A DNA stretch of 64,000 bases from an uncultured Verrucomicrobiae bacterium (GTDB lineage Bacteria > Verrucomicrobiota > Verrucomicrobiia > Chthoniobacterales > UBA10450): contig CAWIBO010000003.1 of the NCBI GenBank assembly GCA_963834385.1, forward strand, positions 392,983-456,982, in the 5' to 3' direction. How positions within the stretch are numbered: the stretch's first letter is position 1; each line of letters opens with the position of its first letter. The position numbers were made by a program, and so were the translations under genes. Under the pieces are notes generated by a model. The model had not been told where the DNA came from. It was given only the letters and a program-made list of their open reading frames with translations, and made no database searches. Below are positions 32,998 through 46,773 of the stretch, piece after piece.

Positions 32998-33080
32998 AAA
33001 CGGGATTTTTCCCGCTCCACAGTATCAGCGCTCTCTCGAAACGGAAGGGGCCGATGCCTTTTTTCCGTCACTTTGAGTCA

Positions 33081-33250
33081 GACGAAGAAGATTGAGGTCC
33101 GCAGATTACGCAGATGGACGCAGATTTTGGGGGAGGTGCCGGCGGCGCGACGGTCGGTGGCGGGTCCGCTTCTCTCTTCCGTCATCCTGAGCGAAGCGAA
33201 GGACCTCCCATGCCAGCACAACGCGACGCTTCCAGTTGCACCCTGGAGAG
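33081..33250. repeat. Direct repeat copy 1 (about 170 bp, MITE/REP-like)
   Basis: It aligns by eye with 33896..34058. The shared core is cagattacgcagat..gggggaggtgccggcggcgc..ccgtcatcctgagcgaagcgaaggacctcccatgccagcac. Confidence 0.8.
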
Positions 33251-33294
33251 ATCGCCAATGTGACAGCGTCTGGCGCTCGTTGTAGAATCGTTGC

Positions 33295-33516
33295 GTGAGC
33301 ACTGTCACCGAGATTCGCGAAGCGATCCGAAAGCTGCCAAGCGAGGACGCGTGGAAGCTGGCGGCTGAGTTGCGGGAGTATCTCGACGTTCTTTGGGATC
33401 GGCAATTCGAAGAGGATGTCAAAGCTGGTCGCCTGGACGATATAATCGCACACGCTCGCGAAGCGCACGCCGCGGGCAAGAGTCGGCCGATGGATGAAAT
33501 CATCGGGAACGACTGA
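33295..33516 (+). CDS. Putative antitoxin-like small protein (addiction-module component-like)
   Basis: 73 aa. MSTVTEIREAIRKLPSEDAWKLAAEL...WDRQFEEDVKAGRLDDII has the pattern of small antitoxins that precede RelE/ParE-type toxins. No intact toxin follows it. Confidence 0.4.
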   Translation: MSTVTEIREAIRKLPSEDAWKLAAELREYLDVLWDRQFEEDVKAGRLDDIIAHAREAHAAGKSRPMDEIIGND

Positions 33517-33605
33517 CTTCTGGCGACTTTATCGGCGGTTGCCGGAGCCGGTGGCAAAGAGATCGAAGGATACCTCGTTGGCTGTGCGAACAGGGAAGCG
33601 TTCGC

Positions 33606-33809
33606 TCACGCGAGGGCAACTTCCAACACCTTTGCACTCGGGGATAAACGAACTGGGCTGGGCTCAAACCATAGCTCCAAAGCCTCCTTGGCGTTGTGAA
33701 CTGCCTCTTCCTCGGTTTCACCAGCCGAGGCGCACCCAGGCAGCTCGGGAAAAAACGCGGCCCAACGATTCGTTTCCCGGTCCTGTTCCACCACAAGGCG
33801 CAATTTCAT
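33606..33809 (-). CDS. hicB: HicB-family antitoxin-like protein (UPF0150)
   Basis: 67 aa. MKLRLVVEQDRETNRWAAFFPELPGCASAGETEEEAVHNAKEALELW is the classic HicB N-domain pattern. I could not find a hicA partner. Confidence 0.6.
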   Translation of the reverse strand: MKLRLVVEQDRETNRWAAFFPELPGCASAGETEEEAVHNAKEALELWFEPSPVRLSPSAKVLEVALA

Positions 33810-33895
33810 GATCGAATGGTATGCGGTTCTTCTCTTGACGACAAACTCTCAATCCGATGTCGAGAAGAAGGAGGCGTGGCGATGCCGCGGAGCCT

Positions 33896-34058
33896 AACGA
33901 AGATGAAGTCCACAGATTACGCAGATTGACACAGATTAGGGGGAGGTGCCGGCGGCGCAACGGCCGGCGCCGGAGCTGCTTTCCCTTCCGTCATCCTGAG
34001 CGAAGCGAAGGACCTCCCATGCCAGCACCCGCAACGCCCCCAGTGTTACCTTGGAGGA
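33896..34058. repeat. Direct repeat copy 2 (about 163 bp)
   Basis: Same orientation as copy 1 and near-identical over the central core of roughly 60 nt. It brackets the two antitoxin-like genes. Confidence 0.8.
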
Positions 34059-34138
34059 CCCGATAGGCATAAAATGCGATAGCGAATGCAGCTCGCAGCG
34101 GAGAAGTTCCGCCACTGCGAAGGGTGCCCTTCCGAGGC

Positions 34139-34471
34139 TCAAGGTTTATCAATGGGAACCAGATCGACCATGCTGATCACCGCGTCCACGCGTCCCGTCT
34201 CCCGATGAATCCCAACCCGATAAATCTCCCCGGCTTGTAGAAGGAATCGGACAACAAAGATGGGGATGCTCCCACCCGATTCCGGTTCAATCGTTCCCTC
34301 CGTCACTTTGACGATGGTCGATTCGGGCAGCCTGTGCCCGTCGCGTTCGAGAGCCCCCTTGGCGATTCGAATGGCCTCACGCTGCGACACTGGTTGATGC
34401 CTGGTAAGCTGATCATCTTTGAAGGAGCAGCCCGCAACCAACAAAGTGACGACAAGAAAGAAACGTCTCAT
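34139..34471 (-). CDS. Small lipoprotein, hypothetical
   Basis: 110 aa with lipobox MRRFFLVVTLLVAGC. Confidence 0.55.
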   Translation of the reverse strand: MRRFFLVVTLLVAGCSFKDDQLTRHQPVSQREAIRIAKGALERDGHRLPESTIVKVTEGTIEPESGGSIPIFVVRFLLQAGEIYRVGIHRETGRVDAVISMVDLVPIDKP

Positions 34472-34544
34472 GGGCCGGGAGCCGTTTTTCCTTTGTCCAT
34501 TGGGAAGGGTTGACGTGACTTTAGCCGAACGGAAGATCTCGGAG

Positions 34545-34586
34545 AGCGATTTTTCTTGGGTCGAGCCTTTGGAACCTTTTTGACCT
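34545..34586. repeat. Short intergenic repeat, copy 1
   Basis: agcgatttttcttgggtcgagcctttggaacctttttgacct matches 35289..35345, apart from a 12-13 nt insertion in the second copy. Confidence 0.5.
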
Positions 34587-34609
34587 CGGCGGTCTGCGTC
34601 CGGGCGCGG

Positions 34610-35146
34610 CTAAAGATCGCCGTATGCGCGGCCGGTATAATCTTCAAATTTAAAGCCGCTGCGCTCAGTGATCTTGCGCTGTGCTTTTAGAACAAATGTG
34701 AAAAGCAGGTGGCCACGGATGCCACGCGCCGCCACCAGGCCATCGCCGGTGCCGAACGAATACGACTTCACGATTTCAAGACGCCGATCGTCGTAGCCTA
34801 TCCAGAAGGGGAGGCGGACGAAGCCCAAGTCGTTTTTGAGCTGGAAAAGCGCTGCTTTTACCGGTTCGTTTCCTTCCGAAAACTCGCCCAACGCCATGAC
34901 AAACCACGCGATGTCAACGATGGCGGGATGCTGTTCCCATGAGAGTGCGGGATGCGCATTTAAGTCGAGATGGGCTGCTGCGGCGGACTCACGCAGCCGA
35001 GTGACCGCGAGTTCCAGCCCGCCAAGGACCATCTCTTCGTCGTATCTGATATCGACCGACGTCGTGCCTTCCGCCTCAACAGCCCGAATCGGCGAGCTGC
35101 CTGCGAGGCAGAACAACACAGCTATAACGACCTTCCTAGATGTCAT
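34610..35146 (-). CDS. Secreted hypothetical protein
   Basis: The ATG at 35146 gives the signal-like MTSRKVVIAVLFCLAGSSPIRAVEA. 178 aa. Confidence 0.5.
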   Translation of the reverse strand: MTSRKVVIAVLFCLAGSSPIRAVEAEGTTSVDIRYDEEMVLGGLELAVTRLRESAAAAHLDLNAHPALSWEQHPAIVDIAWFVMALGEFSEGNEPVKAALFQLKNDLGFVRLPFWIGYDDRRLEIVKSYSFGTGDGLVAARGIRGHLLFTFVLKAQRKITERSGFKFEDYTGRAYGDL

Positions 35147-35288
35147 CTGTATCTGCAGGTGCCATTCTCTACGGTGTAGCACTATCATGAGCAGGAGCAG
35201 GAGTCGCGGCAAAAGCCGCGGAGCCTACACGGTCCGCTACGTTCTTGTCATTTTCGGCTTTTCTTAAAATGAAACGGAAAAACTGCGA

Positions 35289-35345
35289 AGGCGATTTCTC
35301 CTGGGTCGAGCCCTTGAATCGACCCATTTGGAACCTTTTTGACAT
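35289..35345. repeat. Short intergenic repeat, copy 2
   Basis: aggcgatttctcctgggtcgagcccttgaatcgacccatttggaacctttttgacat. Confidence 0.5.
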
Positions 35346-35463
35346 TCTGCTTAAATACCCGGCAAAACCGGACGCGAGATCCTGTTTTTCCAGGGTTACG
35401 GACCCTCGTTTGATACCCTTTTGACAGTTGGCGGCGAACATTGGTCCTCACTCGGCATCGCTA

Positions 35464-37021
35464 TTAGACGCTCCAACGCTGTATAATGTCGATCAAGCCG
35501 CGGGTGTCTTGCGCGCAGTATTTTTCGAGTGCTCTTCCTGACACGGCGTCGTTCCCACCAGCTAATTTGAGAAACGCTGATCCGCATGAATTCGCGGCTG
35601 GCGATCTCACCGTCGCTGATCTGCAGGCCGTCGTAGGACGTCGCTGTCAATGCCGGCAACACCGCTTTGAGCGACGCGCTGCCATTCTGCGATGGATGAT
35701 AATATGCCATCCCGCGGAATACTTCGAGCAAATCGAGAAAACGCCGCGACACTGCGCTGACCCACTGAGCGCACTCCGGGAAATACAACGCACAGTCGGC
35801 TAGTCTCTTGGCTTCGAAGTTCGTGTTGTAGCCAACGATGCTGCCGCGCTCGCCTAACAGCTCTCTGAGCTCAAGGAGGAACGCTGGTCGAGGATCGTCG
35901 TTGCCGTCGGCAAGAAAGCTGTGGTGCTCCACCCGCGCGCCTTTGCTTCTGATGATGTGGAGGGAGAATTGAAACGGGATCTGGGTGTACGGGCGGGACC
36001 GGTCGAATAGCGGAACAGCCGACTGGATTGTTTCGAAATCGAGGAAATGCAACGGATACTCGAGTCGCGACAGGAATTGTCTTATCGCTGCGCGATCTAC
36101 GTGTGGCGTTCCGCTTCGGTGAGATGCGACCTGTCGAACCTGCGCGTCGGTTAGAACCATATCTGATGGCATGTCTTCGATTCGAAGAATCCCTCGAGCG
36201 AGCAGATCCCAAGGCCGGCTTTTTGCGTTCCGTAAATCGAACACGCTCGGTTTCGGGAGAAAAGCCCAGCACGATTCCATCAGCGAACAGTCATATGGGT
36301 CCGTGCAATGACGTGACACCTTCACGTCCGGACATTCCGCTAAAGCCAAAACCGGTTTCATTTCTTCCACCTTTCCATGAACCGCCGGTAGCAGTGCGTT
36401 GATCGGGACGGTTACGTCAATTCGGGTTAGCAATTGATGCGGATTAATGTCGCCGGTCCGAATGTATTTTTTGTTCACCAACAGCAGGTAACAGTTCCTA
36501 ATCGATAGTCCTGCGCCTTCGTAGACGTAGCGTTGGAAGGCGAGATCCTGGAGATAAACCTCTCTGAGATCATCTAAGTCTTCGGGGACTCCTGAGCTCT
36601 TTACCTCGATGACGTCCCAGCGCCCATCTGCCGTTGGAGCAAGAATGTCCGCTCTGCTAAAGCACCCGTTGTAAATGAATGAAGCTTCGAAGATCGCTTT
36701 ACCTTGGCGCAGCGCATCGCGAGTCGCGCTAACGGGTTCGGCAAAGCCACCTATATCGCCAAGATCGACACCGCCAGGATATAGCTTCTTCGCCCACTGG
36801 CCGACTTTGTGGCCCTGATCGAAAATGGCTTCCAAGGTGGCGTCAACCGGCGGAAGCAGAGCCTTGTTGTTATAATGAATCCAGAGCGCTTTCGGACACT
36901 GCAGGCCAACCAGATACTTTGTCTTCGATATTAACGGCGGCCCTTTGAGCGACGCCTCGTTTTCTAGAGCGAACCAGCCGGTAAGCAACCGACCTAGGGA
37001 TAAAACAGCCGATCGCATCAT
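35464..37021 (-). pseudogene. DUF2779-type protein: N-terminal Cas4/RecB-like PD-(D/E)XK nuclease plus C-terminal DEDD-like exonuclease domain; C-terminal frameshift at about 35570-35590
   Basis: Motifs seen: KTKYLVGLQCPKALW, RADIL...WDVIEVKSS (D..ExK), LQDLAFQRYVY (QxxxY), the Cys cluster CTDPYDCSLMESC, then HFLDFETIQ..IPFQFSLH and VGYNTNFE. Shifting frame near 35580 restores ...GRALEKYCAQDTRGLIDIIQRWSV* (YC..DT motif) with a stop at 35464. Confidence 0.7.
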
Positions 37022-37035
37022 GACAAAGCCGCGAA

Positions 37036-37311
37036 CTACTTGCCGAACCAATCCGTGATATCGAAAAAGACGCTTAACTCCTTCCCGTCCGGTCCCTGCA
37101 AGATGATTTCATCGATCTGACGACCCGCTTCGTTTTTGCGAGAACGCTGGCGGAGCTTCTGATGCCGCGGGAACTGCGCTTTTATCCACGCTTTTTCAGC
37201 GGCAACACCCTGCTGCTCGTTCTTTGCCTTTGGCAGCGTGATGTGAGCCGAAGCATCCGCGGCCCAATTGGGATCGATCATCCAGTTTTGTTGGTCGTCT
37301 TCTTCTAACAT
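37036..37311 (-). CDS. Hypothetical 91-aa protein (island operon)
   Basis: The ORF is tightly packed. Its start lies 6 nt after the upstream stop, and its stop lies 14 nt before the DUF2779 ATG. No recognisable domain. Confidence 0.45.
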   Translation of the reverse strand: MLEEDDQQNWMIDPNWAADASAHITLPKAKNEQQGVAAEKAWIKAQFPRHQKLRQRSRKNEAGRQIDEIILQGPDGKELSVFFDITDWFGK

Positions 37312-37317
37312 TGTCTT

Positions 37318-37536
37318 TCAGCTGCGGTTCCGACCAGCCAGACTGCCCAGCCAAAGTCTGCGGTTCCGCGTCGAGTCCGAGGCAAGGCCGCTGATTTTGC
37401 GCTGAGCGTCGACAATCGCTTGGGCGTCCCGTTTGTCAGCGACCCAGGCGATTAATTTCTTTTGTGGCCCGACAATCGCCCACGGAAATCCATTCGGCGG
37501 ATTAATCTGTGCTGCGTCAATTTTCCACTGATTCAT
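37318..37536 (-). CDS. Hypothetical 72-aa protein (island operon)
   Basis: ORF MNQWKIDAAQINPPNGFPWAIVGPQKKLIAWVADKRDAQAIVDAQRK... No recognisable domain. Confidence 0.4.
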   Translation of the reverse strand: MNQWKIDAAQINPPNGFPWAIVGPQKKLIAWVADKRDAQAIVDAQRKISGLASDSTRNRRLWLGSLAGRNRS

Positions 37537-37615
37537 GTCCTTAAGCTTAGCCGCGAGAAGGCGCTAACTTCAGGACAAAGTTCGGGGACGGAATCCATCC
37601 AGCCATTAGTCGCCA

Positions 37616-38227
37616 TCAAATGTAATTTGCAATCGCATCGGCGATCTTGAATCGGCATCCAAGCGACTGAGCCCTTAACGGGTGAGCGGGCGCGGTTGAT
37701 AGTGATGGGGGATTATAAACTACTTTCGAAGTAGCGCCGTTTAAATAGAACGGACTCGGACGCGGACTGAGGGATGACAATGCAGCTAAAGCGGAAGCAG
37801 CCTGGCCCTTCGGAAAATTACTCCCCCAAGCAAACCAACAAAATCTCGCGCTGCGATTGGGTGATTGGTCGCCTGGACACAGGCTTTTCAACGCAGCGTA
37901 AACATTTGAGTTGCATAAATAAAAAAGGTTTAGAATCTCGACATAGTCTCCTATTTTCGGGCCTCCGCGCTTCGCCTTTAGTTGCGCTTCATTCAGGATT
38001 TTGATCACCGCGTGCATCGTGTTGTCTAGCGTCGGCCAAACGCCCCAAGTAGTCGTTGCGGCTACCGGCTTCTGTGTGCCGGGATTGCACATCCAAATGA
38101 TACCGACACAATTACCCTGATGCTGCTGGTAACTTTGGATAGGCGTCGTGGCAGGCAGAAAGTACGCCCTAGTGTCCTTACGCGTGTGCGGCGGACCTAC
38201 ATCCCATTGTCCGTAAACGAGCGCCAT
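37616..38227 (-). CDS. DUF1643-like (uracil-DNA-glycosylase-fold) protein
   Basis: 203 aa. VGIIWMCNPGT...LDNTMHAVIKIL...YVEILNLFYLCNSN...RFCWFAWGSNF parallels the DUF1643 pattern (mlNPStA..D.T...v.NLF...aWG) as I recall it from memory. Confidence 0.5.
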   Translation of the reverse strand: MALVYGQWDVGPPHTRKDTRAYFLPATTPIQSYQQHQGNCVGIIWMCNPGTQKPVAATTTWGVWPTLDNTMHAVIKILNEAQLKAKRGGPKIGDYVEILNLFYLCNSNVYAALKSLCPGDQSPNRSARFCWFAWGSNFPKGQAASALAALSSLSPRPSPFYLNGATSKVVYNPPSLSTAPAHPLRAQSLGCRFKIADAIANYI

Positions 38228-38241
38228 ATTCTTGAGCCGCT

Positions 38242-39288
38242 TTAACCCTTCTGAAGCAATTTTCGCAGCCGACGAAAATCGCCGGAATCCTTAAACCCGA
38301 TCTTTGCGGCAACAAACTCATAGCGTTTGTCACCTTTCAATCCTTGTCGGCGCGCAAAGCGATCAGCGAGCTTTGCCTCTCGTTTAAGGCCGACTAGTTC
38401 GCGTCGGCCGATTGAAAAGCCTAGCCCTTGTCGGGCGATACCCCGTGCTCGATGTAGCTGCATCACTTTCGAAAAATCGAGGTCACGCTTCGGGTCCAAG
38501 CTGAGATATCCCGGAATGAACAATTGCGTTCCATACGGAGTAAAGACGACCGACGTTTTCAGCAGCAGTGGTGTGTCGTCCTCCATTCCCCACAGATAGT
38601 ACTTCCAGCAAAGTAGGTCGAATAAGGCTTGGAAACGCGCGCCGTCATCGGTGAACTCGGCGCCCGGACCGCGTTCCCAATTCCGTTCTGGCATTAAGGA
38701 GCGATTGATTACTTTCTTCCGAGCGATCGATTGCGGGAAAGTTTGTTTGAGAAGGGCCCATTCGTTTCGAAAGTCTTCTGACTGCTCCAGATAGAATAGA
38801 TACTCATCATACTTCTCCTGCGCCCTCAGGTAAAATTCGTAGCGCCCTTCATGCACCAGCGTTTCTGATTCTCGGATCACCCCCGGCGCGGCAACCTCCA
38901 GTCGATTGAAACCGCATCGACCGTCAGCGGCATTAAACTGAACAATCATTTCAGCGAGGAGGATCGCCGCGGGATCCGGCGAGGCTGAAGTGAGCGCGCT
39001 CTTCAAGTAGTTGGCGTAATTTTCTGGAAACGCGGGGAAGGCGGATTCGCACTGCCAAAAAGCGTAACAGCACCAGCCTAGTGCTTCGGCCAGCAGCTCC
39101 ACGTTGGGATCGTCATTTTTCGCCAGGACTTTCGGAACTCTTGCAAACAGAAATTCGATTAGGGATCGCGCCTCGGTCGAATCGACAAACGGTAGCGATT
39201 TTAGATGAGCGACGACTTTGGATCGCCATCCCGTTTTAGGGAGACCAAACCGATTCAACCATGTCGCCGCGAACGCCTGTTCACGCAT
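38242..39288 (-). CDS. Hypothetical 348-aa protein, first gene of the island minus-strand operon
   Basis: Long ORF with coherent coding texture. Its stop lies 14 nt before the next start. No motif I can name. Confidence 0.55.
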   Translation of the reverse strand: MREQAFAATWLNRFGLPKTGWRSKVVAHLKSLPFVDSTEARSLIEFLFARVPKVLAKNDDPNVELLAEALGWCCYAFWQCESAFPAFPENYANYLKSALTSASPDPAAILLAEMIVQFNAADGRCGFNRLEVAAPGVIRESETLVHEGRYEFYLRAQEKYDEYLFYLEQSEDFRNEWALLKQTFPQSIARKKVINRSLMPERNWERGPGAEFTDDGARFQALFDLLCWKYYLWGMEDDTPLLLKTSVVFTPYGTQLFIPGYLSLDPKRDLDFSKVMQLHRARGIARQGLGFSIGRRELVGLKREAKLADRFARRQGLKGDKRYEFVAAKIGFKDSGDFRRLRKLLQKG

Positions 39289-39379
39289 CAGTTACGTTAT
39301 ACGCGGCACGGCAGGAAACGCGAAGGCTGAAGATTGGTCCCATACTCAGTCCTGAATTTCCTCTTCGACATCCAGTAAG

Positions 39380-40405
39380 TTGGCGGCGTTGAAAACGATT
39401 GGGCCAATCATAACCGCACTAGATATCGGCCACTCGAAGTGCTGCATGGCCTGCGCCGAGGCAGACCCGCGCGGGTTTCTCCAGCTAATCGGAGTCGCCG
39501 AACGGTCATTCCTGATCGATCCGCCCCAAGCGAACGCATCAGCCGATTTATTGCAGAGAACGATCGCCGATCTCGTTAGACATTTCGAGCAGAAACACGA
39601 AATTGTAATTCACACTGTTCAGCTGGCCGTCAACGGAAAGGACATTCGAGGCGAAACATTCGCCGATGCCGAGCAAGCGGCCATCCCCTTCGGGAACGAA
39701 ATCATTCATCGGTTCGATAGCTGCGGTCGCGAAGTTGATTGGTGGAATTTCGCGCAGGGACACATCATTCACGCGAAAAGAAGTTCGATCGAAGAGAAAA
39801 TAAGGATCGCACGCCGCGCCGGTCTCCAGGTGAATCGACTAGTTCTCACTAGTTTGGCCAGCGCATTTGCCGTGACTAGATCGGCGGAACGCGACGGTCG
39901 GAATTGCCTGGTGATCGATATTGGCAGTAGCAGTGCCGGCTATGTTTTATTTTACGAGGGCAGCATTGCAGCCAGCGGAGTCATCGAAGCCGGAGGACAT
40001 CTAATCACCGCCGAAATTGCGTCTTCTCAAAATGTCTCGTGGGCAAAAGCGGAGCAACTAAAACTGGCCCCGCCCAATGACTCGGCAGAAAGCGAGATCA
40101 TCGCGCGTCATTTGATTGAGCTTTTTTGCAATGTCGCTGAGAAGGTCCGCAGTGGGTTATCGAAGACTGGGTATGTCTACCTGACTGGCGGAACGAGTCG
40201 ATTTCCAAACATCGAACTGATTGCCGCGGGAGTGTTCGATCGACCGGTTTATCGCGCTGCCGCGTTGAACTTCGTGGGCGAATGCGAGCCTACGCGACCG
40301 GAACAATCCACTGCGTTGGGGTTGCTAAAATACGCCGTGTCACACGGTAGCGTCCCGCGCAAAGAATGGCAGGCACGGCGCTGCACCAGGAACCCAGTTT
40401 TATGA
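39380..40405 (+). CDS. FtsA/actin-fold (ASKHA) ATPase-like protein
   Basis: Phosphate-1 ITALDIGHSK, phosphate-2 CLVIDIGSSSAGYVLF, then GGHLITAEIA and the adenosine motif YLTGGTSRFPNI. A region resembling the FtsA SHS2 (1C) insert lies between them. TTG start, so the start is uncertain. Confidence 0.7.
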   Translation: MAALKTIGPIITALDIGHSKCCMACAEADPRGFLQLIGVAERSFLIDPPQANASADLLQRTIADLVRHFEQKHEIVIHTVQLAVNGKDIRGETFADAEQAAIPFGNEIIHRFDSCGREVDWWNFAQGHIIHAKRSSIEEKIRIARRAGLQVNRLVLTSLASAFAVTRSAERDGRNCLVIDIGSSSAGYVLFYEGSIAASGVIEAGGHLITAEIASSQNVSWAKAEQLKLAPPNDSAESEIIARHLIELFCNVAEKVRSGLSKTGYVYLTGGTSRFPNIELIAAGVFDRPVYRAAALNFVGECEPTRPEQSTALGLLKYAVSHGSVPRKEWQARRCTRNPVL

Positions 40406-41523
40406 AAACAACCCCTCAGCCAGAAATGAAAACCACACCTCTTGCGCTCACACACGGTGTCGTTACCACCCGATGGCCAGATCAGTATTCGAATGATCCA
40501 TTCGCGATCGGAGCCACGCAAGGTTGGCATTCGATGTCCCGATCGGGGCGATGGAATGCCGCAAAAATGATGCATGATTTGCACGCAGCTTTAATTCACT
40601 CCCGCGCCGCTGATCGCACAGGAGTCTCAAAAACCGGGAAGGTCTATTGGGGAACGCTAATCTTCGCCCCCGACAAAAGCCGTTATGTGGCTTTGCATCA
40701 TTACGGGGATGAGATCTGGTTCCTTCGCGTTTGGGCGAATTCCGCCGTTGTCGCGGCCAGCGAATTCAACCGCTTGAGAAAGAGGTATCTCTTGGCCGAT
40801 CGTGACGACGGCTCTGGAGAATTCTTCATTTTAACCCATGGAATGGCTGGACCAGATAAGCGTCGTATCAAGGTGCCGGAGCGGAAACTGAATGAAGCAG
40901 AATTACATCTGCACTATGGCGACGACTTTGTTGTTTGGCATACGCAATTGATGGAGCTAATCCGTACCCAAAAGACCGGTGTCACTATTCTGCAAGGACC
41001 GCCCGGGACCGGTAAAACGAGCTACCTTCGCCATCTGCTGTTCGCAACGCAGAAAACGCATCGCTTTTACTATCTGCCGATCAGCGTTTATCCGATGCTC
41101 GTAGCACCGACATCAGTGGACTTCTGGATTGGCGAGAATGAGACAACCGAGTGCCTAACTAAAGTGGTCGTAATCGAAGACGCCGAAGCGCTCCTCATGC
41201 AGCGGGACAACGGCAACCAGGAATCGGTTTCTAATTTACTCAACATTGCAGACGGATTCCTCGGCGACTTTCTGAAACTGCACGTGATCTGTACCATCAA
41301 CGCGCCGGTTGAGAAGCTGGACCCGGCGGTAACACGACCGGGGCGTCTGATTGCCTCACGCCAATTTCGTCGCCTAACAACTAGCGAGGCAATGCGCTTG
41401 GCAAACGCAAAAAATCTCAGGCTCGAGCCGCGCGAGGACTATTCCCTAGCCGAGATTTATAACGGTTCTGCCGCCCGGCTTGACGAATCTAATGATCGAA
41501 CTCTAGGATTCTCCCCTCATTAA
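40402..41523 (+). CDS. AAA+ ATPase (classic/BCS1-like clade) with an unknown N-terminal domain of about 200 aa
   Basis: The ATG at 40402 overlaps the upstream stop (ATGA). Walker A is GPPGTGKTS, Walker B VVVIEDAEAL, followed by LLNIADGF, sensor-1 CTIN and the Arg finger PAVTRPGRL. Confidence 0.8.
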   Translation: MKTTPQPEMKTTPLALTHGVVTTRWPDQYSNDPFAIGATQGWHSMSRSGRWNAAKMMHDLHAALIHSRAADRTGVSKTGKVYWGTLIFAPDKSRYVALHHYGDEIWFLRVWANSAVVAASEFNRLRKRYLLADRDDGSGEFFILTHGMAGPDKRRIKVPERKLNEAELHLHYGDDFVVWHTQLMELIRTQKTGVTILQGPPGTGKTSYLRHLLFATQKTHRFYYLPISVYPMLVAPTSVDFWIGENETTECLTKVVVIEDAEALLMQRDNGNQESVSNLLNIADGFLGDFLKLHVICTINAPVEKLDPAVTRPGRLIASRQFRRLTTSEAMRLANAKNLRLEPREDYSLAEIYNGSAARLDESNDRTLGFSPH

Positions 41524-41541
41524 CCAGATGACTTCAATTCT

Positions 41542-41727
41542 ATGAAACAAGACAATCAGCATCCACCACGCAAAGGTGAGACCTCGGCCAAATCTGCCTC
41601 GGTCAAAAACGACAAACTAGCTGCCAACGTTCAAGCGAGCCTAGAGCAGTTAAAAAAAGACGTAAAAGCGGGCGATCGCAAAGCCGCTGAGTTTCAAAAG
41701 TTGCTAAATGCCTTTCGGAAACATTGA
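41542..41727 (+). CDS. Small basic helical protein (61 aa)
   Basis: The ORF starts 18 nt after the AAA+ stop. It is Lys-rich and looks helical (ASLEQLKKDVKAGDRKAAEFQKLLNAFRKH). Confidence 0.4.
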   Translation: MKQDNQHPPRKGETSAKSASVKNDKLAANVQASLEQLKKDVKAGDRKAAEFQKLLNAFRKH

Positions 41728-41784
41728 AGTCGCGACGATGGATCAAGCATCTGCGAGCACACCCTTGTCTTGGCAGATTCCTAA

Positions 41785-42104
41785 ATGACTGATCTGGAAT
41801 ATCAACTACGCGTCAGCGAATTAGACGTTCGTGATAAAGAAGCGCGATTGAAAGAAGCGCGCACCCGGTTCGATACCACTGCAGCTAAAGGTCGATCTGA
41901 GGTGCAGCTAAAGGTCGATCTGAGGTCGAAAAAGCCAAAGCAGATCTCAGCAAGATTGAAGCGGAAACTATCGCGGCTTACGAAAAGGCCAAGCAGGACT
42001 TGGAGCGCGCACAGATAGATTTGGATCGCGAGAAGTGCGGTCTTGAATATGCACGCGCGAACCTCGCCCGGGGATCGGATCATAAATCTCCGACTCAAGA
42101 GTAA
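41785..42104 (+). pseudogene. Coiled-coil protein gene disrupted by a 23-bp tandem duplication
   Basis: As written, the ORF stops at 42018 after a frame change. Removing one 23-nt copy gives a clean 98-aa heptad-like ORF (…AAKGRSEVEKAKADLSKIEAETIAAYEKAKQDLERAQIDLDREK…TQE*) ending at 42104. Confidence 0.55.
41881..41926 (+). repeat. Perfect 23-bp tandem duplication (2 copies)
   Basis: gcagctaaaggtcgatctgaggt occurs at 41881-41903 and is repeated exactly at 41904-41926. Confidence 0.9.
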
Positions 42105-42468
42105 TGATGAATTTTGATTTGCCGCATGGCTATTCGTCTACGCCTTGACCCGTTGCCAGCCTGCGACGTGCGCCGGAACAAAATGCGGCGTTTGAATCCA
42201 CCGGGAATTGGCATCTTTTGGCGCCGACGGCGGGCGCTGGCGGATCTGTGGTGTCGCGGGACGCGGTCATTTTCGCTCGGTTTTCGACAGGCAGATGTTC
42301 CTGCTGGTCTCGAGTGATCATTTTAACCGGAAGAAGTTCGTCCGACCCTCATCAATTTACGGAATCACTACGACAACATCTGGATGATTGGTTCTAAGAT
42401 GTGCTCGAGAATACCGAGGATTAACTGTTTAGGCCTAACCAGCCTGAGTTTTCGTATTACAGAAATCC

Positions 42469-42542
42469 CGGAGCCTACGGGGCTCGAACCCGCAACCTCT
42501 GCCGTGACAGGGCAGCGCTCTAACCAATTGAGCTAAGGCTCC
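42469..42542 (-). tRNA. tRNA-Asp (anticodon GUC), CCA not encoded
   Basis: I folded it by hand. Acceptor stem is GGAGCCT/AGGCTCC, D arm GCTC-AATTGGTTA-GAGC, anticodon arm CTGCC-CTGTCAC-GGCAG, T arm GCGGG-TTCGAGC-CCCGT, discriminator G. Confidence 0.9.
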
Positions 42543-42671: not shown

Positions 42672-43175
42672 TTACCGGTTCTTCCAGATGACGAGGCTGC
42701 CGGCCAGTTTGTCGTGCCAGCCTTGTTTCCGGCCGTCCCATGCCACCCAGAGCAGCCCGAGAAAAAGCGGAATGATGGAGACGAAATAGCCGAGGTAGCG
42801 AATCACGCCCTGGAGCAGATCGAGTTTTTCGCCCGTTTTCGCGTCGACCACGTGCAGCCCAAGGATCAGTTTCCCCGGGGTGCCTTTGCAGGTGATCCAG
42901 AGAAGGATGATCAGAATGGCCGGGAGAACGTAGGAGATGAGGAAGTCCGCCGGGCCCTTGATCAGTTCCGCCGAAGTAAAATACTCGCCGCCATAAATGG
43001 CGAACAAGAGCGGCAGGGTCAGGATGACGACAACGATCGTGTCAATGATGCTGGCCACGACCCGGATCCAGAACCCGGCCGGCCGGGGAACAACCGGAAC
43101 CTGAAGGGGAATGGCCGGGGGAATGGTGCCGGGCGCGGCGGCAGCCGGTGGCAGGGGAGGCGGTGTCTGGTCCAT
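42672..43175 (-). CDS. RDD-family membrane protein
   Basis: 167 aa. A Pro-rich N-terminus is followed by AGFWIRVVASIIDTIVV...GWHDKLAGSLVI, the RDD pattern. Confidence 0.8.
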   Translation of the reverse strand: MDQTPPPLPPAAAAPGTIPPAIPLQVPVVPRPAGFWIRVVASIIDTIVVVILTLPLLFAIYGGEYFTSAELIKGPADFLISYVLPAILIILLWITCKGTPGKLILGLHVVDAKTGEKLDLLQGVIRYLGYFVSIIPLFLGLLWVAWDGRKQGWHDKLAGSLVIWKNR

Positions 43176-43186
43176 GGGGGCAGGCT

Positions 43187-44950
43187 CTAGTTGAGAAGCT
43201 CGGGATCGGGCATCTGCACGACGCTGGCGCCGGCGGATGAATCAAGCTGTGAAAGCGCCTTCAAGGCCGGGCGCAACGGCGCGATGGCCTGGATGAGCGA
43301 CCGGACAAGGACCTGCTCCGAGTTCTCCTTCTTTTTGCCGGCGAGGGCCTCGATCAGCGACGGCGGTTTTGGGTACCGCACGAGCTTCACGTTCTCTTCC
43401 GGTTTGATCCCGGAAAGTTCCTTGGCCAGTTCGACTGCGCGCTCGAATCCGCCCAGCTCGTCCACCAGCCCGAGTTTCTTCGCGTCTTCGCCACTCCAGA
43501 CGCGGCCCTTGGCAATCTCGAGGACCCGTTCCTTCGGCAGGTTGCGGCCGGCCGCGACCTTGTCGGTGAACTCCTGGTAAATGCGGTCGAGCCACGAGTT
43601 GAACTTGGCCCACTGCTCGGGGGTGTAATCGTGCAGCCCGGAATACATGAGGGCGTTCTTGCCGGTCTGGACGCTGTCGAAGGTGAGCCCGAGCTTGTTG
43701 TTGAAGAAATCGCGGGTGAGCAGCTTGAAGGCGAGCACACCGATCGAGCCGGTGATGGTGGCGGGCTGCGCGATGACGCGGTCGGCCGCGAGCGCGACGA
43801 TGTAACCGCCCGAGGCCGCGACGTTGCCCATGCTCACGACCACTTTTTTGCCCTTGTCGCGCGCGCGCTTCAGCTCGCGCAGGACGGCATCGGAGGCGAC
43901 ATACGAGCCGCCGGGACAATCGATGCGGAAGAGGATCGTCTTGATCTTGTCGTCGTCCGCCGCGGCCCGGATCCCGGCACAAACGGTGTCCGAGCCCATG
44001 ACGGTTTCGCCGGTAAATGGGTTGCTCTGGCTTTCGCCGCGCTGGACGCCACCGACGCCGTAAACGATCGCGATCGGTTCGCCCTCCTTGAAGGGATGAT
44101 CGCGCTTGTCGAGGTACGCCTTGAGATAGAGCAGGCGCGCATCTTTCACTTCGTTCCGGGCCTGCTCGTAGACTTCGTCGCGGTAAGCCAGTTGGTCGAC
44201 CAGCCCGAGCTCGACCGCGTTGGTCCCGAGGTAGGGGCCGTTATTGATCAATTCCTCGACTTTTTCCGGGGGCATTTTGCGGCCCGCGGCGATCCCGGCC
44301 ACGATCTGGCGGTGGATCGACTGGAGGAGAACGGTGACCGCTTCGCGGAAAGCCGGCGTCATCTGTTTTTCGGTGAAGACGTCGAAGGCGTTCTTGTATT
44401 CGTAGCGTTGCCCGCCGCGCGGGACGATCTCCAGCTTGTCGAGGAGGCCGCGGAAGAACATCGGCTCCGTCGCGGTGCCGGTCAGCCCGACATCGCCCGA
44501 GGGCTGGAGATAGATTTTGTCGAAAGCGGTGGCGAGATAATAGCTCCCGGTGCCGCCGGAGAATTCGCCGAAGGTCTCGGCAAAGGCGTAGGCTTTTTTG
44601 CCGCTCTGGCGAAAAGCGAGGATGGCGTTGCGCAGGTCCTGCCGCTGGGCCAGGCCCATCTCGCCGGTGCCGAGGCGCACGACCAGGAGTTTGACCCGGT
44701 CATCGCCGGTGGCCGAGCGGAGCCCGGCGAGCAAATCCTGGATGGTGGTGCGCTGCTCGAAACCGAGCTCGGCCAGCGGGGAGGGGTCGGAATCCTCGAC
44801 CACGGCTTTTTCGAGGTCGAGTTCGAGAATGATCGCCTTGCCGCTGCGGTCGGCGAGACCGCGGCCGACGAAAAGGAGGAAAGCGCCGCCGAAGACAACC
44901 AAAAGGAGGAGAACGGCAATGACGTTACGGAGAGTTTTTCGCTTTTTCAT
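43187..44950 (-). CDS. sppA: Signal peptide peptidase SppA, 67K type
   Basis: The ATG at 44950 gives MKKRKTLRNVIAVLLLLVVFGG. There are two ClpP/crotonase-like halves, and GNVAASGGYIVALAADRV contains the catalytic Ser region. Confidence 0.85.
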   Translation of the reverse strand: MKKRKTLRNVIAVLLLLVVFGGAFLLFVGRGLADRSGKAIILELDLEKAVVEDSDPSPLAELGFEQRTTIQDLLAGLRSATGDDRVKLLVVRLGTGEMGLAQRQDLRNAILAFRQSGKKAYAFAETFGEFSGGTGSYYLATAFDKIYLQPSGDVGLTGTATEPMFFRGLLDKLEIVPRGGQRYEYKNAFDVFTEKQMTPAFREAVTVLLQSIHRQIVAGIAAGRKMPPEKVEELINNGPYLGTNAVELGLVDQLAYRDEVYEQARNEVKDARLLYLKAYLDKRDHPFKEGEPIAIVYGVGGVQRGESQSNPFTGETVMGSDTVCAGIRAAADDDKIKTILFRIDCPGGSYVASDAVLRELKRARDKGKKVVVSMGNVAASGGYIVALAADRVIAQPATITGSIGVLAFKLLTRDFFNNKLGLTFDSVQTGKNALMYSGLHDYTPEQWAKFNSWLDRIYQEFTDKVAAGRNLPKERVLEIAKGRVWSGEDAKKLGLVDELGGFERAVELAKELSGIKPEENVKLVRYPKPPSLIEALAGKKKENSEQVLVRSLIQAIAPLRPALKALSQLDSSAGASVVQMPDPELLN

Positions 44951-45096
44951 GGGGGAGCACCTTCTATATCCATTTGTCGGCTGGATTCGACCGATAATTT
45001 TGGAGGGACACCGCCGGACCGGGCCTCGGCGATTGCGGTGGCCGACCGGCGCAGGTATATTCACGGCATCGTGCGCGCGACGGGAAGGGAACGCAG

Positions 45097-46773
45097 GTGA
45101 GTCAGGAACACGACGAGGGAATTTCCCCGGCCGGACGGCCGAAGACCGTGCTGGAGGCGGTTGACCGTCTCCTGGTTTCGCTGCCGGAAAACGACCCGGT
45201 GCGGACCGAGCTGGCGGCGCTGCGCGAGGAGGTGGCCGGCCAGGAGGAGATCATCGGCGAAGCGCGGCAGGTGATCGAAAAGCTGGAGCAGGTGATCAAG
45301 AAAGTGACCTCGCCGGCCAACCGGATCGGGACGTTCCTCGGCGCGGTCGGCCGCGACACCGCGCACATTGTCGTCGGCGGCTCCGATTATTTTTGCAACA
45401 TCGATCCGCGCCTGCCGCGGCGGAGCCTGCGCAAGGGGACGCGCGTCCTCGTCAACGAAGCCTACGTCATTGTCGGTGATCTCGGCTACGAGACGGCCGG
45501 TCCGGTGGCGCGGGTGACCGAGGTGCTTGGCTCCGAGCGTCTGCGGGTGGGCTCGGAGCAGGGGCTGCAATCGGTGGTGCTGGAGCGGTCCGACCGGCTG
45601 GAGGGTGTGGCGGTAAAAGTGGCCGACGAGGTGCGAGTCGATCCCGGTTTCCGGATGGCGCTCGAGGTCATGGCGCAGGGCAAAGCGCAGCAGCATTTCC
45701 TGGATGCGGTGCCGGAGTTGCCCTGGGAAAAGGTGGGCGGGCAGGAGGCGGCTTTGCAGGCGATTCGCGACGCCATCGAGTTGCCGCTTTTGCACCCGGA
45801 ACTCTTCGAGAAGTTCGATCATGCCACGCCCAAGGGTTTTCTCCTGCACGGCCCGCCGGGTTGCGGCAAGACCCTGATCGGCAAAGCCACGGCCTATAAC
45901 CTGACGCGGCAGCTCCGGGAAAAGACGGGCGCCGACATGACGGAATATTTCATGCACGTGAAAGGCCCGGAAGTGCTCAACATGTGGGTGGGGGAATCCG
46001 AGCGCATGGTCCGCGAGATCTTTGCCACCGCGCGCGAGAAAAGCCGGGAGGGATTCCTGCCTTTCCTCTTCATTGACGAAGCCGAGAGCATTCTGGGAAC
46101 CCGGCGCGCCTCGCGTTTCTCCAACATTCTTTCCACGCTTGTGCCGATGTTCTGCGCCGAGATGGACGGGATCGATTCGCTGCATGAGGTGGTGATCATC
46201 CTGGCCTCGAATCGGGCTGACCTGATCGACCCGGCCATCCTGCGCCCGGGCCGGATCGACCGAAAGATTCGGGTGCGTCGGCCGGACAAGGCAGGGGCGC
46301 GCGCGATTTATCGGATCTATCTGACGGATCGGCTGCCCTACGAAGGAGTGCTGGCGAAAGAAGGGAAGGGGATCGGGCCGGCCCTCGATCGGCTGGTGGA
46401 GCGCTTTGTGGACTGGCAGTTTGCGCGGCGGGACGAGAACCGGTTTTTGGAGGTCACGCTGCGGAGCGGACGCAAGGAAGCGCTTTATCGGAGCGATCTG
46501 TTGAGCGGCGCGCTCATTGCCTCCGTGGTGGAACGGGCCAAGGCCTACGCGATCAAGCGGGCCATCGCGACGGGGAACGAGGAGGGCATCAGCGAGGCCG
46601 ATTTGCAGGCTTCGTTTCGAGCCGAGTTCGTCGAGAACGATATTTTTCCGCCGACTGATATCACGGAGGACTGGCTGAAGCTGATCGACTACGAGCCCGA
46701 GAACGTGGTCAAGGTCGCGCCGGTCCGGCCGGCGGGTGCGCGTCGGCGGGAACAGCCTTCCGCCGTGATCTAA
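45097..46773 (+). CDS. mpa: Mpa/ARC-type proteasome-associated AAA+ ring ATPase
   Basis: GTG start with GGGAAGGGA upstream. An N-terminal coiled coil is followed by tandem OB-like segments (IGTFLGAVGRDTAHIVVGG...VLVNEAYVIV; ARVTEVLGSERLRV...), then GFLLHGPPGCGKTLIGKA, FIDEAE and RPGRIDRKI. Confidence 0.85.
   Translation: MSQEHDEGISPAGRPKTVLEAVDRLLVSLPENDPVRTELAALREEVAGQEEIIGEARQVIEKLEQVIKKVTSPANRIGTFLGAVGRDTAHIVVGGSDYFCNIDPRLPRRSLRKGTRVLVNEAYVIVGDLGYETAGPVARVTEVLGSERLRVGSEQGLQSVVLERSDRLEGVAVKVADEVRVDPGFRMALEVMAQGKAQQHFLDAVPELPWEKVGGQEAALQAIRDAIELPLLHPELFEKFDHATPKGFLLHGPPGCGKTLIGKATAYNLTRQLREKTGADMTEYFMHVKGPEVLNMWVGESERMVREIFATAREKSREGFLPFLFIDEAESILGTRRASRFSNILSTLVPMFCAEMDGIDSLHEVVIILASNRADLIDPAILRPGRIDRKIRVRRPDKAGARAIYRIYLTDRLPYEGVLAKEGKGIGPALDRLVERFVDWQFARRDENRFLEVTLRSGRKEALYRSDLLSGALIASVVERAKAYAIKRAIATGNEEGISEADLQASFRAEFVENDIFPPTDITEDWLKLIDYEPENVVKVAPVRPAGARRREQPSAVI

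Follow-up and report, generated by a model that had tools for sequence, protein, structure and literature searches.

Bcs1 (BCS1L) is the mitochondrial AAA+ translocase of the folded Rieske protein, and FtsA is the actin-like membrane anchor of FtsZ in the divisome. In the type IV pilus an FtsA-like cytoplasmic ATPase, PilM, is bound to the N-terminus of a small membrane protein, PilN, and in the anti-phage system Iet a AAA ATPase (IetA/IteA) is combined with a protease (IetS). In this study I describe a locus in which relatives of FtsA and Bcs1 are encoded side by side, at positions 39380-42104 of a stretch of 64,000 nucleotides (nt) from an uncultured Verrucomicrobiae bacterium (contig CAWIBO010000003.1, positions 392,983 to 456,982; this whole stretch is called the window below). 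A gene for an FtsA-like protein is followed there by a gene for a Bcs1-like AAA+ ATPase, and a preliminary description made from the sequence had proposed that the two form a module.

In its modelled architecture, a beta-rich domain ahead of one classic-clade AAA module whose lid is short, the AAA+ protein resembles Bcs1, but it has no N-terminal transmembrane (TM) helix and no match to BCS1_N, is only about 15% identical, and is a bacterial, island-borne protein with motifs of its own (WP..DP..GWH..G.W and YSLAEIY..GF). Its closest structural matches overall are the BCS1-like ATPases of jumbo phages and giant viruses, with which it has fold and sequence family in common; it differs from these in its location in a chromosomal island without recognisable phage genes, and the N-terminal parts and neighbours of the phage proteins are different. 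BCS1 orthologues in jumbo phages have been noted before, and a membrane-proximal assembly role was proposed for them (Iyer et al. 2021, PMC7824862). The FtsA-like protein shows the ASKHA fold with the FtsA-type inserted subdomain, and FtsA is its best family in Pfam, NCBIfam and PDB, whereas its subdomains 1C and 2B are shortened, the amphipathic helix is absent, the score is below the cut-off, there is no dcw cluster and the clade is tiny. With respect to PilM-PilN, the FtsA/PilM-like gene of two related metagenome contigs, L001 and L132, is directly followed by the gene of a small membrane protein with a cytoplasmic N-terminus of about 28 residues; however, two TM segments are predicted in this protein of 86 amino acids (aa), which is not similar to PilN; pilO, pilP and pilQ are absent, and in the window the gene of the 86-aa protein is deleted. 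The likeness to Iet is that of a classic AAA ATPase of about 370 aa on mobile islands with a partner gene, but the window protein matches neither the IetA model of PADLOC nor the IteA model, which is present in NCBIfam, at E<=0.1, and no protease gene is found nearby.

Each of the two proteins is of an already known type, an ASKHA protein of the FtsA/PilM type and a BCS1-like AAA+ protein as noted in phages, while no description of the pairing or of the larger block around it was found in the literature. The pairing is also absent from PADLOC, in line with the earlier remark that no described system was known to contain it, and a literature search on Bcs1 in anti-phage defence gave nothing relevant. 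The comparisons below show the pairing of the FtsA-like gene with the AAA gene to be an infrequent form of a larger, uncharacterised set of island genes and not a proven two-protein system. With a probability of about 40%, this gene set may be a conflict or mobile-element module around the Bcs1-like ATPase, in which the FtsA-like protein would have the accessory role of a scaffold.

The FtsA-like and Bcs1-like ATPases

The FtsA-like open reading frame (ORF) of 341 aa carries ALDIGHSK, VIDIGSSSAGY and YLTGGTSRFPNI; the phosphate-1, phosphate-2 and adenosine motifs (DIGHSK, DIGSSSAGY and LTGGTS) align with those of FtsA, and PF14450 matches at 1.2e-14, as expected from the fold and the three nucleotide motifs that the preliminary description had assigned to it. 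The family scores below their thresholds are 106.3 bits for NCBIfam TIGR01174 (ftsA, cut-off 175.85), 63.6 bits for NF007009 (cut-off 409), 25.1 bits for Pfam PilM_2 (9.9e-6, threshold 27) and 22.5 bits for TIGR01175 (PilM, cut-off 133). The closest solved structures for the sequence are FtsA chains (7q6d, 1.4e-13), followed by PilM and EutJ. Among 1.84 billion representatives searched with HMMER, the narrow clade comprises 4 proteins at E<1e-30, beyond which the next matches, at 1e-23 or weaker, come from canonical FtsA proteins approximately 400-410 aa in length. Compared to canonical FtsA, the clade is without approximately 38 residues of subdomain 1C (gaps of about 22 and 16) and approximately 26 residues of 2B, and its proteins stop soon after LGLLKYA, so that the C-terminal amphipathic membrane helix is missing (alignment A3); Pfam SHS2_FTSA is recorded for the proteins P0005-P0008 and not for the narrow clade. 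Because the clade lost these parts of 1C and 2B together with the membrane helix, the window protein is, judged by its sequence, a reduced FtsA/PilM derivative and not a canonical division FtsA. Its gene adjoins the AAA gene and a gene for a 348-aa protein in a low-GC island, not ftsQ or ftsZ, and no other FtsA homologue is present within the 64-kb window.

Alignments of DNA and protein with the relatives place the start of the FtsA-like gene at TTG 39380 or TTG 39389, just 5' of the conserved IGP. The public gene call of 319 aa (P0001) starts too far downstream and cuts off the phosphate-1 motif. The ratio of non-synonymous to synonymous substitution rates (dN/dS) between the window gene and its L001 orthologue is 0.18, and the gene has therefore been under constraint. 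Two other identities were considered and rejected. A segregation module of the ParM type does not agree with the family matches, which are FtsA, PilM and EutJ/EutA and not ParM, and no repeat array adjoins the gene; an identity as PilM of a type IV pilus does not agree with the scores under the thresholds, and no pil genes are nearby in the window.

The AAA ORF carries GPPGTGKT, VVIEDAEALL, LLNIADGF and RPGRL and matches PF00004 at 7.3e-10, which agrees with the classic-clade AAA+ protein described earlier, and NCBIfam does not place it in FtsH, ClpX, CbbX or another housekeeping family. The family to which it belongs has 936 detected members, nearly all of them unnamed, across which GPPGTGKT, IEDAE and RPGRL are invariant; an N-terminal domain of about 190 aa with the motif WP..DP..GWH..G.W and a C-terminal motif YSLAEIY...GF are conserved as well (alignment A1). 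The start is the ATG at 40402, which aligns with ATGAAA of L001. As for the FtsA-like gene, the public call (318 aa, P0009) starts too far downstream, here cutting the conserved N-terminal motif. Between window and L001 dN/dS is 0.12 for this gene.

An AlphaFold model of the AAA protein (pLDDT 83) shows a disordered N-terminus, a beta-rich N-domain at approximately residues 33-170 (numbered from 40402) and a classic AAA module. In a fold search of PDB with this model each of the top 12 matches is Bcs1, the best at E 3e-13, and the alignments span both domains (approximately 350-410 columns) at TM-scores of only 0.34-0.50. Among the viral structures of BFVD the best matches are jumbo-phage AAA+ proteins, including those of Pectobacterium phage CBB, Ralstonia phage RP12 and Acinetobacter phage ME3 (E 8.6e-24 to 1e-15, TM-score <=0.63), and giant-virus 'BCS1' proteins are found as well. 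By sequence only the AAA module matches PDB entries, namely Afg2, Cdc48, Rpt subunits and Bcs1, all of the classic clade, and the match to Bcs1 (4e-5 to 1e-4) is limited to the AAA domain. Pfam BCS1_N gives no match at E<=0.1, and the protein has no N-terminal TM anchor, residues 1-44 being polar, without a hydrophobic segment and modelled as disordered. The label 'BCS1-like' of the preliminary description is thus supported by the model for fold and architecture, not for family membership. The PADLOC matches of the protein (mad8, MkoA, Avs4, TRIP13) span only the P-loop.

The PHROG family phrog_14322 matches the AAA protein at 7.1e-17, and 21 related loci in IMG/VR (L139-L159) show 32-41% identity over the C-terminal half; their match to the hidden Markov model of the family begins at about position 100-130, their N-terminal parts differ, and they have no neighbours in common with the Verrucomicrobiota AAA loci. 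A plasmid collection gave partial matches only, at 25-33% identity. The metagenome scan for the family was run with a trimmed alignment, and a pattern scan of genome contigs was saturated by the generic Walker A motif and yielded only 4 true members, all in Verrucomicrobiota metagenome-assembled genomes. The IMG/VR contigs have a GC content of 22-41%, some are 100-350 kb long, and their BCS1-like AAA proteins measure 400-466 aa. On seven of them the AAA gene is directly preceded by a conserved gene whose product of about 320 aa (neighbour cluster 0) resembles a UV-damage endonuclease, as judged by its sequence alone. Paralogous AAA pairs, in tandem or one small gene apart, are present in L007 (5340-7999), L067 (4966-7309) and L134 (3270-6136).

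The island block in the window and in related loci

The two ATPase genes lie in the right-hand part of a low-GC island of approximately 9.5 kb beside a tRNA-Asp gene. Across positions 33000-42500, approximately, the GC content is 51-57%, versus 61-69% in the flanks, as the term 'AT-rich island' had implied. The features of the block and its right-hand boundary are as follows.

35396-37051, minus strand: DUF2779 protein (Pfam DUF2779 4.1e-38; PADLOC Cas4 2.3e-4)
37036-37311, minus strand: 91-aa protein, conserved in the block (54% identity in L132, 35% in L133)
37318-37536, minus strand: 72-aa protein, conserved in the block (61-76% identity in L132, L133 and L134)
37616-38227, minus strand: 203-aa protein, directly downstream of the 348-aa gene (38% identity to the 204-aa gene in the equal position of L132)
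38242-39288, minus strand: 348-aa protein from a family conserved in Verrucomicrobiota, encoded divergently to the FtsA-like protein
39320-39356, no strand: conserved intergenic block, with a TTATA box at 39297-39301
39380-40405, plus strand: FtsA-like ORF, 341 aa (PF14450 1.2e-14)
40331-40337, no strand: deletion junction, about 310 nt lost (three-way DNA alignment of window, L001 and L132)
40402-41523, plus strand: Bcs1-like AAA+ ATPase, 373 aa (PF00004 7.3e-10)
41542-41727, plus strand: Lys-rich 61-aa ORF, starting 18 nt past the AAA stop
41785-42104, plus strand: coiled-coil pseudogene, frameshifted by a 23-bp tandem duplication (98 aa once repaired)
42114-42424, plus strand: what remains of a 93-97-aa gene, frameshifted near 42250 and with an early stop (the gene is conserved in both L001 and L132)
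42469-42542, minus strand: tRNA-Asp(GTC), the right-hand island boundary, coinciding with the GC step

Significant matches are lacking for the 91-aa and the 72-aa protein in Pfam and PHROG, and for the 203-aa protein in Pfam, PADLOC and NCBIfam. No island protein matches a PHROG family except the AAA protein, and this one only AAA families without an assigned function. Capsid, tail and terminase genes are not recognisable in the island by PHROG, nor is an integrase among its ORFs, and a search for attL/attR found no second copy of the 3' end of tRNA-Asp in the window, even with 3 mismatches allowed. PADLOC returned zero matches for the FtsA-like protein.

The whole block recurs in L132. Its minus arm contains genes for DUF2779, 91-aa, 204-aa and 353-aa proteins, with a homologue of the 72-aa protein within the arm too, and its divergent plus arm contains those for the FtsA-like protein, the 86-aa protein, the AAA protein and a 93-aa protein, so that 8-9 genes have the same order and orientation as in the window. 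The contig L001 covers the right half, with a 348-family gene divergent from the genes for the FtsA-like, 86-aa, AAA, coiled-coil and 97-aa proteins. On both contigs the FtsA-like, 86-aa and AAA genes are co-oriented, closely spaced and operon-like.

Compared to these relatives, about 310 nt are missing from the window, with the junction at 40331-40337 (alignment A5). The deletion took the 3' end of the FtsA-like gene and the entire gene of the 86-aa protein (L001, 1415-1675; L132, 5289-5549), and the last 22 or so codons of the window ORF are a new tail made by it. Two TM segments are predicted for the lost protein, whose N-terminus of approximately 28 residues is cytoplasmic, and its gene adjoins the AAA gene in L001, L132 and L134, in the last case following an AAA paralogue. 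The TGA of the FtsA-like gene (40403-40405) does overlap the ATG of the AAA gene as ATGA at 40402-40405, and this ATG is the one that aligns with the start in L001. However, the translational coupling that had been read from the overlap is a secondary product of the deletion, which created the overlap.

Two further lesions affect the small genes downstream. A perfect tandem duplication of 23 bp, with two copies of TGCAGCTAAAGGTCGATCTGAGG at 41880-41925, puts the coiled-coil gene out of frame, and the intact coiled-coil protein of about 98 aa that had been described is not encoded as such; the plus strand has an ORF of 77 aa (41785-42018), and the sole 98-aa ORF of the unrepaired span is antisense (41802-42098). 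When one copy is removed, a 98-aa coiled-coil ORF ending at 42104 is restored, and the gene is homologous to a 92-aa gene of L001 (60% identity over 47 aa). Either a genuine mutation of recent date or an artefact of assembly could account for the duplication. The remnant of the 93-97-aa gene is found by tblastn as pieces in two frames (42132-42254 and 42251-42421), with a stop in place of a conserved Tyr (DDWF-stop versus DDWFY). With the deletion of the 86-aa gene, the window copy thus has three inactivating lesions, while the ORFs of the FtsA-like, AAA, 348-aa and DUF2779 proteins are full length with intact motifs. The Lys-rich 61-aa ORF exists where it had been reported, 18 nt past the AAA stop, but its status as a gene is unsupported: it has no homologue in any related locus fetched, it sits in a stretch of about 260 nt that is missing from L001, and its only family match is a weak one to GvpG (0.074). 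Both ATPases of the gene set as first delimited are intact, but the coiled-coil gene and the 93-97-aa gene are pseudogenes in the window, and the steadier neighbours, the 348-aa gene and the DUF2779 gene, lie outside 39380-42104.

The 348-aa gene recurs beside genes of the FtsA-like clade, and likewise beside those of the AAA family, more often than any other. Its family has 141 homologues in Akkermansiaceae, Prosthecobacter and other Verrucomicrobiota and is strongly conserved, with 41 invariant columns (alignment A4). It has no Pfam match, and a model of the protein (pLDDT 81) finds nothing among PDB folds at E<1. In the window, as in L001, L131 and L132, the gene and its FtsA-like neighbour are divergently transcribed, and a 348-family protein shares a contig of 3192 bp with the FtsA-like protein P0249. 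In the loci of this family that lack an AAA gene (L135, 10001-12946; L136 and L137, 10001-12865; L138, 10001-11661), a DUF1643 protein or an RNase T-like exonuclease is encoded 1-3 genes after the 348-family gene.

Between the 348-aa and FtsA-like genes a block of about 37 nt (39320-39356) is common to the window, L001, L132 and L131, and many columns of its alignment are invariant. The conserved sequence of the intergenic region (39297-39356) is GCGAAGG..GAAGATTGG.CCCA..GTCCTGAA, plus the TTATA box, and this conservation persists even though the FtsA-like proteins of L001, L132 and L131 are only 43-75% identical to that of the window. Tested for an RNA element, the block showed neither an Rfam match nor covariation; it is probably a shared promoter or operator.

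At the other end of the minus arm lies the DUF2779 gene. DUF2779 proteins consist of a Cas4-like PD-(D/E)xK nuclease N-terminal part and a DEDD-type 3'-5' exonuclease domain (PMC13621843, PMC3985635), and homologues at 45-73% identity occur in the AAA loci L132, L133, L134, L105, L109 and L112. The DUF2779 protein is a candidate for the effector of the block.

Approximately 90 loci of the AAA family were fetched, of which 77 besides the window remained after removal of near-duplicates. A 348-family gene is near the AAA gene in 12 of the 77 loci (10 of the 35 with at least 3 kb of flank), a DUF2779 gene in 6 (6 of 35) and an FtsA-like gene in 5 (3 of 35). The co-occurrence of the two ATPases is found elsewhere, with the same synteny in L001 and L132 and with a distant FtsA-like group in L068, L071 and L072, but in no more than these 5 loci, and L130 and L131 have the FtsA-like gene without the AAA gene. 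The second FtsA-like group is encoded 1-3 genes from the AAA gene; its proteins are about 25% identical to the window protein and have full 1C and 2B. In a neighbour-joining tree of the AAA proteins, the loci with FtsA-like genes fall in two separate clades, window/L001/L132 and L068/L071/L072, each with 348-associated sisters. The second-group genes were considered as division genes and this was rejected, with no FtsZ signature nearby and with island-type neighbours, among them a DnaA-like ATPase, a DnaB-N protein, a metallophosphoesterase and RNase T. In L071 (684-4068) and L072 (684-3485) the AAA gene occurs with genes for a DnaB-N-domain protein, a metallophosphoesterase and a full-length FtsA-like protein, and in L071 the start of the DnaA-like ATPase gene overlaps the AAA stop by ATGA. 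An RNase T homologue directly follows the AAA gene in L068. Oddly for an ATPase, the FtsA-like protein of this group carries a twin-arginine-like leader at its N-terminus.

Other AAA loci have tyrosine integrases, a resolvase (clusters 2, 6 and 8) and a DUF5906 primase-helicase as neighbours, and further WYL, ARPP-1, DUF2130, AbiEii and RES proteins, a Phd antitoxin, a PD-T4-6 kinase and mad6. The ARPP domain has itself been predicted to function in conflict systems (PMC9503650). About 10 loci have a variable gene downstream whose start overlaps the AAA stop, and tRNA genes flank the loci L004, L058 and L082. The neighbourhoods of the AAA family show the cargo pattern of mobile or defence islands and do not show a fixed multi-gene system.

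Possible function and rival explanations

The ancestral block would have encoded on its minus strand the 348-aa protein, with a putative new fold, the 203-, 72- and 91-aa proteins and the DUF2779 dual nuclease, and on its plus strand the FtsA/PilM-like ATPase, the 86-aa two-TM protein, a soluble Bcs1-like AAA+ protein, the coiled-coil protein and a protein of about 95 aa. In the favoured reading, the Bcs1-like protein may form a ring that remodels or moves a folded protein, and the FtsA-like protein would be an ATP-dependent accessory scaffold, which the 86-aa protein would tether to the membrane through a cytoplasmic N-terminus. The whole block would serve a genetic conflict or mobile-element function, of which the nuclease is the likely output. 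As the putative membrane tether is gone, the module in the window is probably impaired. Evidence for the favoured reading comes from the purifying selection on the FtsA-like, AAA and 348-aa genes (dN/dS of 0.12-0.18 between window and L001), the conserved synteny in L132 and L001, the Bcs1 and jumbo-phage folds that the AAA protein matches, the second FtsA-like group near the AAA gene, the 86-aa TM gene beside AAA genes in three loci, the mobile-element and conflict genes among the AAA neighbours, and the overlapping AAA stops of about 10 loci.

Several observations weigh against this reading. Of the 77 AAA loci just 5 have an FtsA-like gene, 12 a 348-family gene and 6 a DUF2779 gene. Of the five further members recovered for the narrow FtsA-like clade, L130 and L131 have other genes downstream and no AAA gene, and in three independent 348-family loci on long contigs (L135-L138) AAA and FtsA-like genes are both absent within 10 kb. 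PADLOC gives no defence-model match for the proteins of the block beyond P-loop matches and the weak match to Cas4. The membrane tether is inferred by analogy alone, after PilM-PilN and FtsA-FtsN. Finally, ATPase activity of the FtsA-like protein is not assured, because the phosphate-2 loop varies within its clade (GSSSAGY, GSSCTSW, GAVTTNY and GAGTTDY).

The strongest competitor, possible though rather doubtful, is that the two ATPases are neighbours and not partners. The AAA protein would then be self-contained or be paired with whatever gene comes next, the FtsA-like protein would belong with the 348-aa protein, and the adjacency would be inherited island synteny that was tightened by the deletion. 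The absence of an FtsA-like gene from about 90% of the AAA loci, the FtsA-like genes without AAA in L130 and L131, the widely varying immediate neighbours of the AAA gene and the secondary nature of the ATGA overlap all fit this explanation, as do the divergent 348-aa gene in the window, L001, L131 and L132 and the shared contig of P0249. However, FtsA-like genes near AAA genes in two well-separated AAA clades would be improbable by chance, at a rough estimate, as there is normally about one such gene per genome, and the operon-like spacing and common orientation of the FtsA-like, 86-aa and AAA genes in L001 and L132 also point to more than neighbourhood. It is less probable that the locus is the backbone of a prophage, a phage satellite or an integrative element, in which the AAA protein would be a chaperone for assembly or translocation and the FtsA-like protein an actin-like factor for positioning or segregation. 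The top viral fold match to jumbo-phage AAA+ proteins, the 21 IMG/VR contigs with relatives, the membrane-proximal assembly role proposed for phage BCS1 (PMC7824862) and the integrases, DUF5906 primase-helicase, DnaA-like ATPase and DnaB-N protein that adjoin the AAA gene in some loci would suit such an element. But apart from the AAA protein the island has no PHROG match and no recognisable capsid, tail, terminase or integrase, the viral relatives have no common neighbours with the Verrucomicrobiota loci, and the FtsA-like protein matches FtsA/PilM models and not those of the ParM type.

That the locus is a dying island remnant without current function in the window genome appears improbable; it concerns the present state only and is compatible with the favoured reading of a conflict or mobile-element module. 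The three lesions and the lack of an integrase and of a second att copy in the window would follow from decay, but the FtsA-like, AAA, 348-aa and DUF2779 genes are full length with intact motifs, and the dN/dS values of 0.12-0.18 indicate constraint over most of the divergence from L001. An FtsA-like gene that is the true cell-division ftsA is hardly credible. FtsA is its best family match and the 64-kb window has no second FtsA homologue, yet 106 against 176 bits and 64 against 409 bits leave it below the equivalog cut-offs, approximately 38 residues of 1C, 26 of 2B and the amphipathic helix are missing, the gene lies in a low-GC island with no adjoining ftsQ or ftsZ, and the clade has only 4 representatives among 1.84 billion. 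For the toxin-chaperone pair that had been suggested in the preliminary description, nothing was found in its support.

A more specific version of the favoured reading, and an unlikely one, would make the locus a new multi-gene anti-phage or anti-plasmid system of Verrucomicrobiota, with the Bcs1-like ring, the 348-aa protein and the DUF2779 protein as its core and the tethered FtsA/PilM-like protein as a lineage-specific, membrane-proximal sensor or scaffold. Such a system would contain the first FtsA derivative and the first Bcs1-type translocase of folded proteins in bacterial immunity. If the genes cooperate in any way, a division-type actin homologue and a Bcs1-type ATPase, otherwise of mitochondria and jumbo phages, would have been recruited to a bacterial accessory island. 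If they are mere neighbours, the comparison still corrects two truncated public gene starts, documents the decay of an island and defines a recurrent gene pool of Verrucomicrobiota islands. The locus also offers a handle on three sizeable families without an assigned function, the Bcs1-like AAA family (936 members), the 348-aa family (141) and DUF2779.

Repeats and genes at the edges of the island

The left edge of the low-GC island has two copies of a dispersed repeat of roughly 130 nt, at 33093-33219 and 33904-34028. The copies are 810 nt apart and 83-98% identical, in three adjoining blocks. A 17-nt motif, TTTGGAACCTTTTTGAC, is found at 34568-34584, 35327-35343 and 35409-35425, two copies being exact and one matching at 82%; the copies are placed upstream of and within the 3' end of the DUF2779 gene region.

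Just beyond the island lie three genes, at 45097-46773 (plus strand), 43187-45064 (minus strand) and 42672-43175 (minus strand), which encode a Mpa/ARC-like proteasome ATPase, SppA and an RDD-family protein. The Mpa/ARC-like ATPase scores 438.6 bits with TIGR03689, slightly under the cut-off of 504.75, and an ATPase of the Pup-proteasome type in a probably verrucomicrobial genome may merit separate attention.

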